Shown piece by piece: positions 1 through 64,000 of a stretch of DNA of 64,000 nucleotides (the first letter of the stretch is position 1; every line of letters starts with the position of its first letter). The notes under the pieces are model-generated. The model saw nothing but the letters and a program-made list of their open reading frames with translations, ran no database searches and had not been told where the DNA came from. The stretch comes from Blastocatellia bacterium (lineage in GTDB: Bacteria > Acidobacteriota > Blastocatellia > RBC074): contig DASRDU010000014.1 in NCBI GenBank assembly GCA_035652435.1, positions 1,359 through 65,358 on the forward strand, in the 5' to 3' direction. The position numbers were made by a program, and so were the translations under genes.

Positions 1-1901
1 GCACGACGATGCACTCGATGCCGGGGTTGCCCGTGCTGCATTCCAAAGACCTGGTGAATTGGAAGCTCCTTGGCTATGCGTTCGACCGTTTGGACCTCGG
101 GCCGGAATTCCGGCTGGAAGACGGGAAGGAAGCTTATGGCCAGGGCATCTGGGCGCCGTGCTTTCGTTATCACAACGGGACTTTTTACATCTTCTCCAAC
201 GTCAACCGGCACCGCACGCAACTGTTCCGCGCCAGTAACCCTGCCGGCCCCTGGACTCGCACGGAACTCAGGCGCTCCTTCCACGATCTCTCCGTCCTCT
301 TCGATACGGACGGCAGGGTTTACGTCGTCTGGGGCTATCAGAACATCAATTTCGCCCGGCTCAATGACGAACTCACCGACATTATTCCCGGCACCGAGCG
401 CGTGATCATGCCGAAAGAGGCGGGTATGGGCGAGGGGCTTCACTTCTACAGGATTGATGGGAAGTATTACATTACCAGCGCATGGTTCGCCGGACGCATG
501 CGGATGCCCTGCGCCCGCGCCGACAAACCTGAAGGCCCATATGAAGTGAACCAGGCAATCAGCACGGATGAAGATTTCGGCCTCGCGGAGGGCTACCGCT
601 TGCAGCGCGGCACGCCGCCGCCGTTCAACGCGATCCCGCCGAACTCCGCGGATCGAGGCCGAATGTCGCTGCATCAGGGCGGCATCGTGAACACGCCGAG
701 CGGCGAGTGGTGGGGCTTTTCGATGATGGATTACAACTCCGTCGGGCGGCTCACGTGCCTCTCGCCCGTCACGTGGCAGGACGGCTGGCCCTGGTTCGGT
801 CTGCCGGGCAATCTTAAGCGCACGCCACGCACCTGGGTCAAACCCGATACCGGCCACACGTCGCCCCCGGCAGCGCCGTATGAACGCAGCGACGATTTCT
901 CCGGGCCGAAGCTGAAAAATGTCTGGCAGTGGAATTACCTGCCCGACGACACGAAATGGTCTCTGTCGGAGCGCCCCGGTTTCCTGCGCCTGCATTCGCT
1001 GCCGGCCTCGGATCTCTGGCGGGCGCGAAACACGTTGACGCAGCGCGCCGTCGGCCCCGTCTCCTTTCCCACCGCAGAACTGGACACGCGCGGAATGAAG
1101 GTGGGCGACGTTGCCGGACTGGCGCTCTTCAACTTCCCGTATGCGTGGATCGGCATCAGCCGGCAGTCCGACGGGGCGATGGTTGAACAGTTCGACCAGA
1201 CGACCGGCAGGACGTCGCGCGTCCCCCTCAAAGGAGCGCGGGTGTGGCTGCGCGCGCATTGCGATTTCCTGACGGAGAAGGCGCGGTTCAGCTACAGCAC
1301 GGACGGGAAGAAATTCGAGCCGCTGGGCGACGAGTTCACCATGGTTTTCCAGCTCAAAACCTTCCAGGGCGTCCGCTACTCACTCTTCCACTACCACACC
1401 GGCGCCGGAGCAGGCGGCTATGCGGATTTCGACAGGCTGACGGTAGACGAACCGCATCCGCATGGCCTGATGAGGCCGATCCCCTTCGGCAAAAAGATCA
1501 CGCTCTCGGTCTCCGGCGACGGCCCGGTACTCGTGGTGAAAGACGGCGGACTATCCGCCGTGCCTGCCGGAGACCCGCTGGCCGGCGGGGCGGCGGCGCA
1601 ATTCAAAGTGGTGGATCGGGGGCTCGGCCGTGTCGCGCTGCAATGGGGCGAGGCATTCGTTTCGGTGGCAGCGTCGGGAGGCAACGGGCGGGTGACGTTA
1701 AGATCAGGGCGACCGACCGACGCTGAAACCTTTCAATGGACCGAAACACCGTATGGTGACCTGATCCTGCTTTCGCTCGTCACTCACCGCCACCTGCGGA
1801 TTGATCCCGGCAGCGGCGCTCTCACCGCCGATCATCCTGGCCCACAGCCGGACCGAAAAGATGGCTCGTGCCTGAGATGGAAGGAGAGCAGCAATTACTG
1901 A
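1..1901 (+). CDS. Glycoside hydrolase family 43 protein (beta-xylosidase / alpha-L-arabinofuranosidase / exo-galactanase type). The 5' end is truncated by the window edge.
   Basis: Window opens inside the GH43 5-bladed propeller: 'HSKDLVNWKLLGYAF', 'GIWAPCFRYHNGTFYIF', followed by a C-terminal beta-sandwich. The frame is open to position 1 and lacks the signal peptide and first catalytic Asp region. Stop at 1899-1901. Confidence 0.85.
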   Translation, partial: TTMHSMPGLPVLHSKDLVNWKLLGYAFDRLDLGPEFRLEDGKEAYGQGIWAPCFRYHNGTFYIFSNVNRHRTQLFRASNPAGPWTRTELRRSFHDLSVLFDTDGRVYVVWGYQNINFARLNDELTDIIPGTERVIMPKEAGMGEGLHFYRIDGKYYITSAWFAGRMRMPCARADKPEGPYEVNQAISTDEDFGLAEGYRLQRGTPPPFNAIPPNSADRGRMSLHQGGIVNTPSGEWWGFSMMDYNSVGRLTCLSPVTWQDGWPWFGLPGNLKRTPRTWVKPDTGHTSPPAAPYERSDDFSGPKLKNVWQWNYLPDDTKWSLSERPGFLRLHSLPASDLWRARNTLTQRAVGPVSFPTAELDTRGMKVGDVAGLALFNFPYAWIGISRQSDGAMVEQFDQTTGRTSRVPLKGARVWLRAHCDFLTEKARFSYSTDGKKFEPLGDEFTMVFQLKTFQGVRYSLFHYHTGAGAGGYADFDRLTVDEPHPHGLMRPIPFGKKITLSVSGDGPVLVVKDGGLSAVPAGDPLAGGAAAQFKVVDRGLGRVALQWGEAFVSVAASGGNGRVTLRSGRPTDAETFQWTETPYGDLILLSLVTHRHLRIDPGSGALTADHPGPQPDRKDGSCLRWKESSNY

Positions 1902-1944
1902 TTCTGCCCGCGGGGCAGCGGCTCAGTCCTGACCCAATACATTT

Positions 1945-2229
1945 ATGAAGCAATGGCTGCGATTTACTTTCTGCTTTGCAGCGCTGGTCTCAATCCTGCC
2001 CGGCGCTGACTCGACGGCCTTACGGCTCCAGCATGCTCCGCCCGACGCTGTGGTGCAAGCGGCGGCGCGCGCTGCTCAGCAACGGCGACCGAATATTGTT
2101 CTGATCTTCCCCGACAACCCTGGCTGGGGCGAAGTGGGCGTCTTCGGCAGCGTGCGCGGCGTGCGGACGCCGCGCCTTGACCGGCTCGCCGCCCAGGGGA
2201 TTCGGCTCAATAACTACGGCCAGGCGTAA
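1945..2229 (+). pseudogene. Sulfatase N-terminal relic. It has a signal peptide and the 'PNIVLIFPDN...RTPRLDRLAAQG' region, and is truncated just before the C-x-P-x-R formylglycine motif.
   Basis: The 94-aa ORF matches only the first ~90 residues of type I sulfatases; compare the intact paralog at 7086-8756. The DD metal-site is degenerated to DN. It stops with TAA where the CxPxR motif should follow, and no downstream continuation exists in any frame. Confidence 0.6.
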
Positions 2230-62737: not shown

Positions 62738-62806
62738 AAGGGGCTCGCCCGGGCTTCGCAGGGGTGTTTCTGCCACACCCTCATTCCTTCTTCGTTCAGA
62801 TAACAA

Positions 62807-64000
62807 ATGAACCCACCCGTCCTGCAAATGAGCGGCATTGAGAAGCGCTTCCCCGGCGTTCATGCGCTCAAGGGCGTTGACCTCGAGATCGGCGCGGGCG
62901 AGGTGGTGGCGCTCGTGGGCGAAAATGGCGCCGGCAAATCCACGCTGATGAAAATCATCGGCGGCGTGTACCAGCCTGACGCCGGCAGCTTGCGGGTGGA
63001 CGGCCACCCGGTGGTCATCAGGTCGGCGGCCGAAGCGATCCGGCTCGGCATCGGCTTCATTCATCAGGAACTGAATGTCCTCGACAATCTGGACATTGCC
63101 GGGAACGTCTTTCTCGGCCGCGAACTGAGGCGCGGCGGCTTCCCGGGCCTGCTCGACCGGAAAAGAATGATGGCGGAAACGGAGGCCAGCCTGCAGCGAC
63201 TCGGCCTTGGGCTGCCTGCCGACACCCCGCTCGACCGGCTCTCCATCGCGCAGCGACAGATGGTGGAGATCGCCAGGGTGCTTTCGCTCAATGCCCGCAT
63301 CCTGATTATGGACGAGCCGACGTCGAGCCTGACGCAGACTGAGACGGCGCGCCTGCTCGCGCTCGTCAAGGAGCTGCGGGCGCAGGGCGTCGGCATCATT
63401 TACATTTCGCACCGCCTCGGCGAAATTGAGGAAGTGGCCGACCGCGCGGCTGTGCTGCGCGACGGGGCCAATGTGGGGACGCTCGCGCGCGGGGAGATCA
63501 CGCACGACCGGCTGGTGACGATGATGGTCGGTCGCGACCTCAACCACTTTTACAGTCACCACGGCGAGGGGCGCCGGCCGCGCTATTTCGAAGTCTCCGG
63601 GCTGCGGACGCGCCGTTACCCGCACCATGAAGTCTCGTTCGAAATCGGCGCGGGCGAGATCCTTGGGATGGCGGGCCTCGTCGGCGCGGGCCGCACGGAA
63701 CTGGCGCAGGCGATCTTCGGGCTCGACGGCGGGCCGCCCGATCTCCGACTCGACGGGCGGCCGCTGCGCGTCGGGTCGCCGCGGGACGCCATCCGCCACG
63801 GCATCTACCTGATCCCCGAAGACCGCCGCCGGAGCGGCCTGATCACGGAATCGAACATCCGCGAAAACGTCTCGCTGCCCGCGCTCAGTTGTTACGCGAA
63901 GGCGGGGATCGTCTCCCGCGAACGCGAGCGCGGTGCGGTCGCCGGCATTTGCGGCAGGCTGAACGTCAGGGCGCCGAGCGTCGAGATGCGGGTGGCGAAT
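62807..64000 (+). CDS. Sugar ABC transporter ATP-binding protein (two-NBD RbsA/MglA/AraG type). The 3' end is truncated by the window edge.
   Basis: Not in the ORF track because it has no in-window stop. Manual translation from ATG 62807 is open to 64000. Walker A 'GENGAGKST', signature 'LSIAQRQMVEIAR', Walker B 'ILIMDEPTS'. The second NBD begins 'GMAGLVGAGRTE'. A small hairpin (GGGTGT...ACACCC) lies in the SBP-ATPase spacer. Confidence 0.8.
   Translation, partial: MNPPVLQMSGIEKRFPGVHALKGVDLEIGAGEVVALVGENGAGKSTLMKIIGGVYQPDAGSLRVDGHPVVIRSAAEAIRLGIGFIHQELNVLDNLDIAGNVFLGRELRRGGFPGLLDRKRMMAETEASLQRLGLGLPADTPLDRLSIAQRQMVEIARVLSLNARILIMDEPTSSLTQTETARLLALVKELRAQGVGIIYISHRLGEIEEVADRAAVLRDGANVGTLARGEITHDRLVTMMVGRDLNHFYSHHGEGRRPRYFEVSGLRTRRYPHHEVSFEIGAGEILGMAGLVGAGRTELAQAIFGLDGGPPDLRLDGRPLRVGSPRDAIRHGIYLIPEDRRRSGLITESNIRENVSLPALSCYAKAGIVSRERERGAVAGICGRLNVRAPSVEMRVAN

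Follow-up and report, generated by a model that had tools for sequence, protein, structure and literature searches.

The 64,000-nucleotide stretch of DNA analysed here, called the window throughout, comes from a Blastocatellia bacterium (assembly GCA_035652435.1, contig DASRDU010000014.1, positions 1,359 to 65,358 of the forward strand). It carries genes for beta-L-arabinofuranosidase-type glycosidases, for proline-directed peptidases, for TonB-dependent receptor-like (TBDR-like) outer-membrane proteins and for the degradation of trans-4-hydroxy-L-proline (Hyp), and four of its operons are preceded by copies of one operator sequence. About 37 genes were called from a list of open reading frames (ORFs) and scanned against Pfam and NCBIfam. 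The G+C content is 60-68% throughout, and Rfam and tRNA scans of the window gave zero matches. By intergenic gaps and strand changes the window holds at least eight transcription units, with several strand switches, some gaps of more than 450 bp and three local regulators, of the GntR, AraC and DeoR types. By anatomy alone it is a neighbourhood of operons and not one operon. Scans of the window for terminators and promoter consensus sequences did not rise above the shuffled expectation; the terminator scan left a single weak hairpin (37665-37677), 3' of the GH127 gene described below.

The operator is a 37-nt element, CTAA-N5-TTCAA-N5-CTTA-N6-T-N-CAAGAC, with 20 specified bases. A repeat search of the divergent region between the genes of the TBDR-like protein TBDR3 and of an AraC-family regulator yielded a 44-nt inverted repeat with its arms 5' of TBDR3 and of a Hyp epimerase gene. 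Since the TBDR3 and Hyp operons diverge, both promoters carry the operator in the same orientation to transcription, at 49558-49594 on the minus strand (200 bp upstream of TBDR3) and at 51015-51051 on the plus strand (about 130 bp upstream of the epimerase start). The pattern taken from these two copies predicted a third one at 9398-9434 (+), 105 bp upstream of a TBDR remnant, as a match with 3 mismatches where shuffles indicated that none should be expected, and a half-site scan pointed to a fourth at 22556-22592 (+), about 285 bp upstream of TBDR2. All four match the refined pattern exactly. Four exact matches in 64 kb compare with 0 in 100 shuffles, and no further site is present at up to 2 mismatches. 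Each copy lies in sense with the first gene of an operon, some 100-300 bp upstream. The operons concerned are TBDR remnant-GH146a-BNR-ASST-like-PSCyt-DUF1501, TBDR2-DUF885-GH146b, the core operon TBDR3-P614-Z300-S9-GH127, and the Hyp operon.

The refined pattern was fitted to its own four copies, so that independent evidence is what counts. A 16-base core of the motif has 11 further exact sites in the fetched loci (about 2.5 Mb), against a chance expectation estimated at about 0.001. All 11 belong to Blastocatellia-type loci and stand upstream of TBDR, Z300, GH146 or Hyp genes, and seven related loci have the motif at the equivalent promoters. Of 15 sites, 13 retain the flanking CTAA, a part of the motif that the pattern of this search did not include. 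The layout, with two T(T/n)CAAG half-sites about 20 nt apart that end about 20-25 nt before a -10-like element, suits an AraC/XylS activator. The candidate binder is the AraC-family regulator (50110-50931, +), which has a cupin ligand domain and HTH_18; its orthologue stands between the TBDR and Hyp operons in the related loci L007-L009, L012, L014, L025 and L026.

The core operon starts with TBDR3 (45483-49358, -, 1291 aa) and ends in the gene for a GH127 beta-L-arabinofuranosidase (37696-40170, -), the product of which combines a lipobox-like N-terminus with GH127M, GH127C and F5/8-type-C domains (PF07944, PF20736 and PF20737 are present). The earlier note had counted three GH127 paralogs in the window. 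PF07944 is indeed found in three proteins, and all three have the ETC(N/A) and CC(V/P)G motifs that mark the Cys3-Glu zinc site, as located by motif and not by structure-based alignment. Comparison with solved structures assigns only the gene at 37696-40170 to GH127 and the other two, GH146a and GH146b, to the type of GH146, its sister family of cysteine beta-L-arabinofuranosidases. The GH127 protein matches 6EX6 with 1.1e-239 and HypBA1 (3WKW) with 1.6e-107, compared to 5.6e-17 for 5OPJ, which is BtGH146 (PMC10728902). For GH146a the values are 2.1e-154 to 5OPJ versus 3.9e-24 to GH127, and GH146b reaches 2.5e-147 to 5OPJ. Bifidobacterial GH146 structures (8K7X, 8K7Y) are also among the best matches of both, against which GH127 structures score merely 1e-10 to 1e-24.

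Directly downstream of TBDR3 lies P614 (43557-45401, -), a mostly beta protein of 614 aa, probably a propeller, with a predicted N-terminal membrane anchor and no match in Pfam or NCBIfam. It has thousands of homologues, with 71-86% identity among the best 120 matches, and usually follows a TBDR or an M24 gene. The structure model (pLDDT 46) gave weak sialidase- or propeller-type matches. Two roles are conceivable for P614, that of a binding partner like SusD and that of a new hydrolase. Outside this type of locus P614 is often found directly 3' of a gene for an M24 Xaa-Pro aminopeptidase (L003, L004 and L005 were examined), and in L003, from a 9.5-Mb genome, its surroundings include genes of ASST-like, DUF1501 and PSCyt type, the partners that are also present at 17.4-22.5 kb in the window. 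Because the P614 family occurs in multiple contexts (L003, L004), Z300 was chosen as the anchor for synteny comparisons.

The two peptidases of the core operon are S9 and Z300. S9 (40229-42562, -) is a dipeptidyl-peptidase-IV-like (DPP-IV-like) serine peptidase with a signal peptide, DPPIV_N (PF00930, 3.3e-48) and Peptidase_S9 (PF00326, 1.6e-45) domains and the serine motif GTSAGG at residue 625. Z300 (42605-43507, -) is a secreted 300-aa zincin with a signal peptide and no Pfam or NCBIfam model; NCBIfam likewise has no model for P614, DUF885, the TBDR-like protein or the small protein hyp188 of the left flank. The HExxH motif of Z300 is H187-E-F-S-H191, and the invariant E233 and E237 follow about 45 residues downstream in EYWAEG. 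HEFxH and EYWAEG are invariant in the family, of which the members share 55-89% identity across phyla. The earlier note had proposed an M34/Pro-Pro endopeptidase-like (PPEP-like) zincin. The HExxH and the Glu ligand are in line with this, but the protein stays below the Pfam thresholds for M34 and M90, with 13.8 bits for ATLF (M34) where the gathering score is 27.4. Sub-threshold matches to Peptidase_M90 were obtained for 15 of 16 family members and to ATLF/M34 for 12 of the 16, and the distant member P0361 passes ATLF with 41.1 bits, which makes homology of Z300 to M34 likely, although Z300 is not a classified member. The top 8 Foldseek matches of the Z300 model are all PPEP-1 (E 0.1-0.8, TM 0.33/0.49). 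Sequence and profile searches of the PDB with Z300 and P614 returned nothing useful.

A profile search with Z300 in 1.84 billion representative proteins (50% identity clusters) gave 3,522 matches with E<=0.001. Many of them are confined to a core of some 135 residues, positions 145-282, which at times is repeated in tandem. Domain scans of multi-domain matches found this core fused to DPPIV_N plus Peptidase_S9 in three different arrangements. Its other partners are the prolyl isomerases cyclophilin and FKBP, a VHL beta domain with DPP-IV behind it, and a GH63-like hydrolase. VHL beta is a known hydroxyproline-binding module. These domain fusions and the gene neighbourhoods suggest that Z300 is best read as a proline/hydroxyproline-directed metallopeptidase. 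Among the proteins scanned (P0361-P0510), tandem arrays of the core reach up to 7 matched stretches; the core is also fused to DUF6055 and Laminin_G_3, and it is present in a eukaryotic-looking protein with thrombospondin (TSP1), immunoglobulin and zona-pellucida domains. Z300 resembles PPEP-1/Zmp1 (M34) and MtfA (M90) in the HExxH, in the Glu ligand about 45 residues downstream and in its proline-related context and fusions; it differs in being below the family thresholds and in a conserved N-terminal half without a match.

The Hyp operon (51100-55694, +) encodes LhpA 4-hydroxyproline epimerase (likely start 51181), a DAO-type subunit (52116-53246), an 82-aa 2Fe-2S subunit with Fer2_4 (53239-53487), a Pyr_redox_2 subunit (53429-54763) and an LhpC-like deaminase of the DHDPS family (54786-55694). 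LhpA scores 452.5 bits against the cutoff of 442 of the NCBIfam equivalog NF010577. For the other genes no specific model passed; the set and order of DAO, Fer2_4, Pyr_redox_2 and DHDPS fit the Lhp pathway, mainly by context. The pathway is defined by LhpA, LhpB/E/F, LhpC and LhpG (PMC3958920). As in the LhpABCEFG cluster of Pseudomonas and Azospirillum (PMC3958920), LhpA, a putative three-subunit D-Hyp dehydrogenase and an LhpC-like deaminase are in one operon. The cluster in the window differs from it by the absence of LhpG and of the usual amino-acid transporter, and by sharing its operator with glycosidase and peptidase operons. The operon had been taken for a complete one, which holds for the epimerase equivalog and the DAO, Fer2, Pyr_redox_2 and DHDPS genes but not for LhpG.

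The two remaining operons under the operator are located at 9.4-31.4 kb. The first opens with a TBDR-like remnant (9539-11678, +; OMP_b-brl_4 positions 1-299 of 838), for which tblastn with TBDR3 as query recovered two pieces, residues 5-560 (frame 3) and residues 1108-1286 (frame 1); the roughly 550 aa between them are deleted. It is considered a remnant because the two kept parts sit in different frames and the middle is deleted; an assembly error may be an alternative cause of the deletion and the frameshift. The operator persists 5' of it, so that transcription of the operon may now run through a first gene that is dead. Where three SusC-analogous porins had been proposed, two TBDR-like genes of the window are intact, TBDR3 and TBDR2 (22874-26779, +, 1301 aa, CarboxypepD_reg and OMP_b-brl_4). 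The remnant is followed by the beta-L-arabinofuranosidase-type GH146a (11917-14457, +; PF07944 2.9e-133), which has C-terminal DUF4986 and DUF6805 domains and a true start probably at about 12.09 kb, and by a BNR/sortilin-Vps10-like beta-propeller protein (14568-17384, +), which has a likely start at 14670 and then a signal peptide. The best structure match of the latter (1e-12) is a BNR protein of unknown function. The possibility that it is a GH74 xyloglucanase, which together with GH31 would indicate a xyloglucan locus, was rejected, as there is no similarity to any GH74 structure. Next are an arylsulfotransferase-like (ASST-like) or Mal s 1-like beta-propeller (17393-18406, +), a PSCyt1/PSCyt2/PSD1 protein (18425-20992, +) and a DUF1501 protein (21112-22524, +). 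The BNR-ASST pair is also kept in L088. The PSCyt and DUF1501 genes, with gaps of 18 and 119 bp, presumably belong to this operon; if co-transcribed, they would be unexpected partners for a glycopeptide regulon. In the second operon TBDR2 precedes a DUF885 protein (27268-28932, +) with the motif HEGVPGH, placed in the Peptidase_MA clan (PMC12572635), and the GH146-type beta-L-arabinofuranosidase GH146b (28966-31416, +; PF07944), which like GH146a has a DUF4986/DUF6805 tail. Pfam found no SusD in the window, where TBDR-like genes, carbohydrate-active enzymes (CAZymes) and regulators are present. The locus works like a polysaccharide utilisation locus (PUL), but the acidobacterial version is not a canonical SusC/SusD PUL.

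Comparison with other genomes shows that these gene families recur together elsewhere. Relatives of Z300 were found in 489 stretches (one genome per species), and the best 80 loci, from different species, were examined with 10-kb flanks; neighbours were detected by tblastn and phmmer with the window's own proteins. The flank length limits testing of the far left and far right genes of the window in close relatives. The commonest neighbours are GH127/146 (27 of 80 loci), S9 (23), TBDR (20) and GH31 (16), followed by P614 (12), M24 Xaa-Pro aminopeptidase (11), DUF885 (10), HypE or DAO (8), GH51-type (4) and sulfatase-type genes (2, both weak at 27-30% identity). Within these flanks GH43, M20, DinB, MBL, PSCyt, DUF1501, ASST-like, kinase, GalE and sugar-binding protein genes were each found in 0 of 80 loci. 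At least one partner family is present in 39 of the 80. GH127/146 is directly adjacent to Z300, at 40-430 bp, in L011, L015, L028, L031, L039, L068 and L079.

The loci span Acidobacteriota, Bacteroidota, where they are SusC/D PULs, and KSB1. The window order Hyp genes-AraC-TBDR-(M24)-P614-Z300-S9 is shared by L008, L009 and L012. In L018 (Blastocatellia) GH31-Z300-S9-GH127-GH146-GH51 lie on one strand, and Hyp genes stand beside P614 or Z300 in L038 and L041 (Acidobacteriaceae) and in L051 (Bryobacteraceae). Pontibacter loci L053 and L056 have LhpC-Aldedh-HypE-DAO-DUF885-S9-Z300-SNF symporter, which includes an Aldedh-family gene, and L045 (Pontibacter rufus) has HypE-DAO-DUF885-S9-M24-M1-Z300-SNF-GH127 on a single strand. 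SusC and SusD are found beside Z300 in L046 and in L068 (Flavisolibacter), which reads DUF885-SusC-SusD-x-x-Z300-GH127-S9. The KSB1 locus L028 begins with three genes that may serve L-arabinose catabolism and uptake, for a sugar kinase of the FGGY family, a protein with a Fucose_iso_C domain and an SSF symporter, and continues with GH127, Z300, M61, GH146, a melibiase/NPCBM protein, P614 and BNR. Like L018 and L045, the clusters of L068 and L028 keep to a single strand, and those of L018, L045 and L068 have the form of a tight operon. The BNR gene also stands beside the zincin in L020 and L031. Anchoring the scan on BNR gave weaker links (among 80 metagenome loci GH127/146 8, M24 6, S9 5, GH51 5 and Hyp genes 3). 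The records of L008, L012 and L017 are titled 'Heliomicrobium sp.' or 'uncultured Clostridia', labels that look wrong for loci that share 78-85% identity and synteny with this Blastocatellia locus. In L026, a 533-kb Acidobacteriota contig, M24, P614, Z300, S9 and GH31 are in short broken ORFs, which are probably assembly frameshift errors rather than real pseudogenes. The cluster is also carried by cultured strains (L045, L046, L053, L056 and L068): Pontibacter rufus 172403-2, Huijunlia imazamoxiresistens H34, Pontibacter pamirensis TRT317, P. toksunensis KCTC 23984 and Flavisolibacter longurius BT320.

Between the second and the core operon lies a stretch GntR-GH31-MBL-GH51b that has its own regulator and no motif, yet is syntenic with the core in relatives. 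The GntR/FCD regulator (36807-37517, -) and the GH31 alpha-glycosidase with a TAT signal (34226-36709, -) are kept beside the zincin and S9 in relatives, and GH51b (31439-33001, -), a motif-less GH51-type alpha-L-arabinofuranosidase with Alpha-L-AF_C, is syntenic with the core in L007, L017 and L018. The block at 1-9.3 kb, also without the operator motif, contains a GH43 gene with GH43_C2 (9-1901, cut at the left window edge), DinB, an M20 peptidase (3117-4622) and GH51a, a GH51-type alpha-L-arabinofuranosidase with Alpha-L-AF_C (5420-7039, -). GH51a is in one unit with hyp188 and the single true sulfatase of the window (PF00884). The hyp188 gene (8753-9319, -) encodes a secreted 188-aa protein without a family match and overlaps the co-oriented sulfatase gene by 4 bp. 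The two GH51, GH43, GH31 and BNR assignments of the earlier note, and those of S9, M20 and DUF885, were all reproduced in Pfam and NCBIfam. Its two sulfatases reduce to this one, the other being the DUF1501 protein, which is not a demonstrated sulfatase. A sulfated algal or animal substrate, to which the sulfatases had been thought to hint, is rejected: the one sulfatase is in a motif-less operon and only two weak homologues occur near Z300 in the 80 loci.

At the right end a sugar operon (56178-64000, +, cut by the window end) encodes DeoR, GalT, an IMPase-like protein, a long GHMP kinase, a GalE-like epimerase, a sugar-binding protein and an ABC ATPase. It has its own DeoR regulator and no operator motif, and is a probable monosaccharide-salvage operon. 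Of the Leloir-type gal operon with ABC importer proposed before, GalT (with passing Pfam domains), the GalE-like protein (assigned by domain only), the sugar-binding protein and the ABC ATPase stand, whereas the 498-aa kinase reaches 136 bits against the TIGR00131 cutoff of 226.65 and is below every other GalK model. GalT, the 354-aa IMPase-like protein and the long kinase form a triad (57111-60698) that in relatives shares an operon with GH51 (L168, L171, L172) or adjoins GH146/GH127 (L167, L168, L172), and is linked to one of these families in 4 of 6 relatives (L167-L172). The shared operons and neighbourhoods tie the sugar operon to the use of arabinofuranosides. The sugar that it handles could be galactose (of Ser-alpha-Gal or arabinogalactan origin) or, possibly, L-arabinose; the long kinase may act on L-arabinose or another sugar in a Leloir-like salvage route. 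L169 carries an ordinary 385-aa GalK besides the triad.

In view of the above, we think it probable, though well short of certain, that the segments at 9.4-31.4 and 37.7-55.7 kb, together about 40 kb, form one regulon for Hyp-O-arabinosylated glycopeptides such as those of extensin-type hydroxyproline-rich glycoproteins (HRGPs) of plants and green algae. The extensin glycan consists of Hyp-(beta-L-Araf)1-3 with an alpha-1,3-L-Araf cap, plus Ser-alpha-Gal (PMC13164431), a structure that appears to match the set of GH51, GH127/146 and alpha-glycosidase genes. The characterised GH146 enzymes XeHypBA1 and Bll4HypBA1 cleave Araf-beta1-Hyp, and the GH127 enzyme HypBA1 cleaves beta-1,2-arabinobiose (PMC10850190). 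Given this glycan structure and these known activities, the regulon would hold every activity class needed to dismantle an arabinosylated Hyp-rich glycopeptide and to burn Hyp. Hydrolysis of Hyp-Ara(n) by the GH127 and GH146 enzymes of the window is predicted from sequence.

Gene families, motif, synteny and domain fusions are as observed above; from these we infer a substrate, an order of enzymes and their cellular location, as well as possible roles for P614 and the BNR, ASST-like, PSCyt and DUF1501 proteins. The TBDR-like outer-membrane proteins would import glycopeptide fragments. In the periplasm or at the cell surface GH51, possibly with GH43, would remove terminal alpha-L-arabinofuranose, after which GH127 and the two GH146 enzymes would remove beta-1,2-linked and Hyp-linked beta-L-arabinofuranose, and GH31 would take off an alpha-linked sugar. 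The PPEP-like zincin Z300 could then cleave the Pro/Hyp-rich backbone, and S9 and DUF885, in relatives with the M24 Xaa-Pro aminopeptidase, would trim the products to dipeptides and free Hyp. LhpA, LhpB/E/F and LhpC would turn Hyp into alpha-ketoglutarate semialdehyde, with LhpG necessarily encoded elsewhere. The AraC-family regulator would activate all four promoters via the tandem half-sites of the shared operator.

Several points weigh against this regulon model. The explanation is drawn from sequence analysis. The refined motif was fitted post hoc to the four copies of the window, and the pairing of AraC with the operator is deduced from position and the tandem half-site layout only. No partner family was found within 10 kb in 41 of 80 Z300 loci, and two Pontibacter clusters with Hyp genes, peptidases and Z300 have no GH127 within 10 kb. 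The window scans did not find LhpG or any Aldedh-family gene, a GH121 beta-arabinobiosidase, L-arabinose catabolic genes or an inner-membrane peptide or Hyp transporter. The solved structures nearest to GH31 are alpha-xylosidases (1.5e-80), not alpha-galactosidases. The GH127 gene is closest to the Bacteroides enzyme 6EX6, which we take to be the arabinogalactan-PUL enzyme BT3674. Finally, the AlphaFold structure models (pLDDT 58.6 for Z300 and 46 for P614, both from shallow alignments) are of too low a quality to assign a fold with confidence.

A bolder version of the regulon model joins Z300, P614 and BNR with GH127/GH146, DPP-IV, DUF885 and the Lhp genes into an unrecognised multi-phylum glycopeptide utilisation system. 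Here Z300 would represent a PPEP-like family specialised for arabinosylated poly-Hyp/Pro, P614 a glycopeptide-binding or -hydrolysing propeller in the place of SusD, and an AraC-type sensor of Hyp or a Hyp-arabinoside would turn on uptake, deglycosylation, proteolysis and Hyp catabolism at once. The triad could form a side branch, a Leloir-like route for L-arabinose instead of galactose. We put this forward tentatively, as the odds are somewhat against all of it being right.

Other explanations can be considered. Two independent systems could lie side by side, an arabinan or arabinogalactan-protein glycan locus (TBDR, GH127, GH146, GH51, GH43, GH31 and the 'gal' operon) and a catabolic cluster for proline and Hyp peptides (S9, Z300, DUF885, Lhp genes) that any protein containing Hyp could supply, with only a general plant-litter regulator in common. 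This would agree with the Bacteroides origin of the closest solved relative of the GH127 protein, with BT3674-type GH127 acting on arabinogalactan, and with BtGH146, the nearest solved relative of both GH146 genes, being a pectic-arabinan enzyme (PMC10850190). The nearby sugar operon with GalT, kinase and GalE and the Pontibacter loci L053 and L056, which have the peptide and Hyp part without GH127, point in the same direction. However, peptidase and beta-arabinofuranosidase genes are interleaved and co-directional in several phyla (L018, L031, L045, L068), and one operator precedes both the glycosidase-containing operons and the Hyp operon. Also, galactan-backbone enzymes (GH2, GH35, GH16, GH30 and exo-beta-1,3-galactanase types) were not detected in the window. 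We consider a pair of separate systems improbable.

It is less plausible still that the target is collagen, gelatin or another non-plant Hyp-rich protein (animal, fungal or bacterial collagen-like), with the arabinofuranosidases as later additions without a mechanistic link. DPP-IV, M24, M1 and Hyp catabolism are the classic set for collagen peptides, L053 and L056 do without GH127, and L004 has M24-P614 pairs without any CAZyme. Yet no family is found near Z300 more often than GH127/146 (27 of 80 loci), which is often directly adjacent, GH146 genes are in two of the four motif-controlled operons of the window, and a collagenase of the M9 or U32 type was not seen in the window.

Slightly harder again to maintain is the proposal of the earlier note that the whole window is co-regulated as one super-locus of 64 kb, with the GH43/M20/GH51a-sulfatase block and the gal operon as parts of it. 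All of these parts do adjoin one another on the DNA, action of M20 on dipeptides and of GH43 on alpha-arabinofuranosides is plausible, and the triad is tied to arabinofuranosidase genes in four of six relatives. Against this, the outer units have no operator copy even at 2 mismatches, the window has three different local regulators, strand switches and gaps of more than 450 bp, and GH43, M20, DinB and MBL are absent from all 80 Z300 loci, with the sulfatase in two, both weak. Synteny in relatives extends to the core families and not to the GH43, DinB, M20 and sulfatase block, and co-regulation of the whole window finds no support. That there is no functional unit and the pattern arose by chance can practically be dismissed: acidobacterial genomes are rich in glycoside hydrolases and peptidases and about half of the Z300 loci have no partner genes, but the shared operator occurs where chance predicts none, synteny crosses phyla and Z300 is fused to DPP-IV, and the shared operator and conserved synteny mean that the co-localisation is not due to chance.

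What stands from the earlier interpretation is its core, overstated at the edges: a PUL-like glycoprotein utilisation regulon. That glycan-, peptide- and Hyp-directed genes form one functional unit is supported in that four operons share a motif and the families recur around the zincin in other phyla. We found no description in the open-access full-text literature of a locus or regulon that joins HRGP glycosidases, Lhp genes and an extensin protease, as the earlier note had supposed, nor of the Z300 or P614 families. In our judgement the Hyp-glycopeptide utilisation system is real, conserved and apparently undescribed, with the substrate and regulator as deduced above.

The known HRGP clusters of Bifidobacterium and Xanthomonas have glycosidases without Hyp catabolism, in Xanthomonas together with a prolyl-peptidase pseudogene (PMC7263609, PMC6085000). 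The hypBA1-hypBA2-hypAA cluster of Bifidobacterium longum (GH127, GH121, GH43), which comes with an ABC importer that takes up beta-L-arabino-oligosaccharides linked to Hyp (PMC7263609, PMC10850190), resembles the window in targeting HRGP arabinosides with GH127 and an alpha-L-arabinofuranosidase. It has no peptidases or Hyp catabolism and relies on GH121 and Gram-positive ABC uptake, whereas the window has TBDR-type import, two GH146 and no GH121, plus peptide and Hyp processing. In Xanthomonas euvesicatoria XeHypBA1 (GH146), XeHypBA2 and XeHypAA are encoded beside a prolyl-oligopeptidase pseudogene (PMC6085000). The likeness lies in a GH146 that there cleaves Araf-beta1-Hyp and in an S9 proline-directed peptidase gene next to glycosidases, and the authors suggested that this peptidase degrades HRGPs (PMC6085000). 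It differs in that the peptidase is a pseudogene and no zincin, P614, Hyp operon or shared regulator was described. With the SusC/SusD PULs of Bacteroidota, among them the one that B. thetaiotaomicron has for arabinogalactan, with BT3674 as its GH127 enzyme (cited in PMC10850190), the locus shares a TonB-type outer-membrane importer, exported glycosidases and a local regulator, and its Bacteroidota relatives are true SusC/SusD PULs. The acidobacterial locus deviates by having P614 in the position of SusD, by its proposed glycopeptide cargo and by including peptidases and amino-acid catabolism in the regulon. A bacterial zinc metallopeptidase for glycosylated extensin, the trait predicted for Z300, is the gluzincin Svx of Pectobacterium atrosepticum (PMC13164431). 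Svx, a virulence factor of two domains, one of them acyltransferase-like, is secreted by a type II system and is not encoded in a catabolic locus, and a sequence relationship between Svx and Z300 was not detected.

The proposed regulon may provide tools in the form of new peptidases directed at Pro/Hyp and of glycosidases for Hyp-arabinosides. Plant and algal cell walls contain extensins and other HRGPs in abundance, as cross-linked components that are rich in nitrogen. To our knowledge, almost nothing has been reported on their mineralisation by soil bacteria, the described systems being gut-bifidobacterial and Xanthomonas glycosidase clusters and a few pathogen proteases. If the regulon model is correct, two large unannotated families, Z300 and P614, would gain a function, and it would account for the way in which Acidobacteriota and Bacteroidota that are widespread in soil draw carbon and nitrogen from HRGPs.

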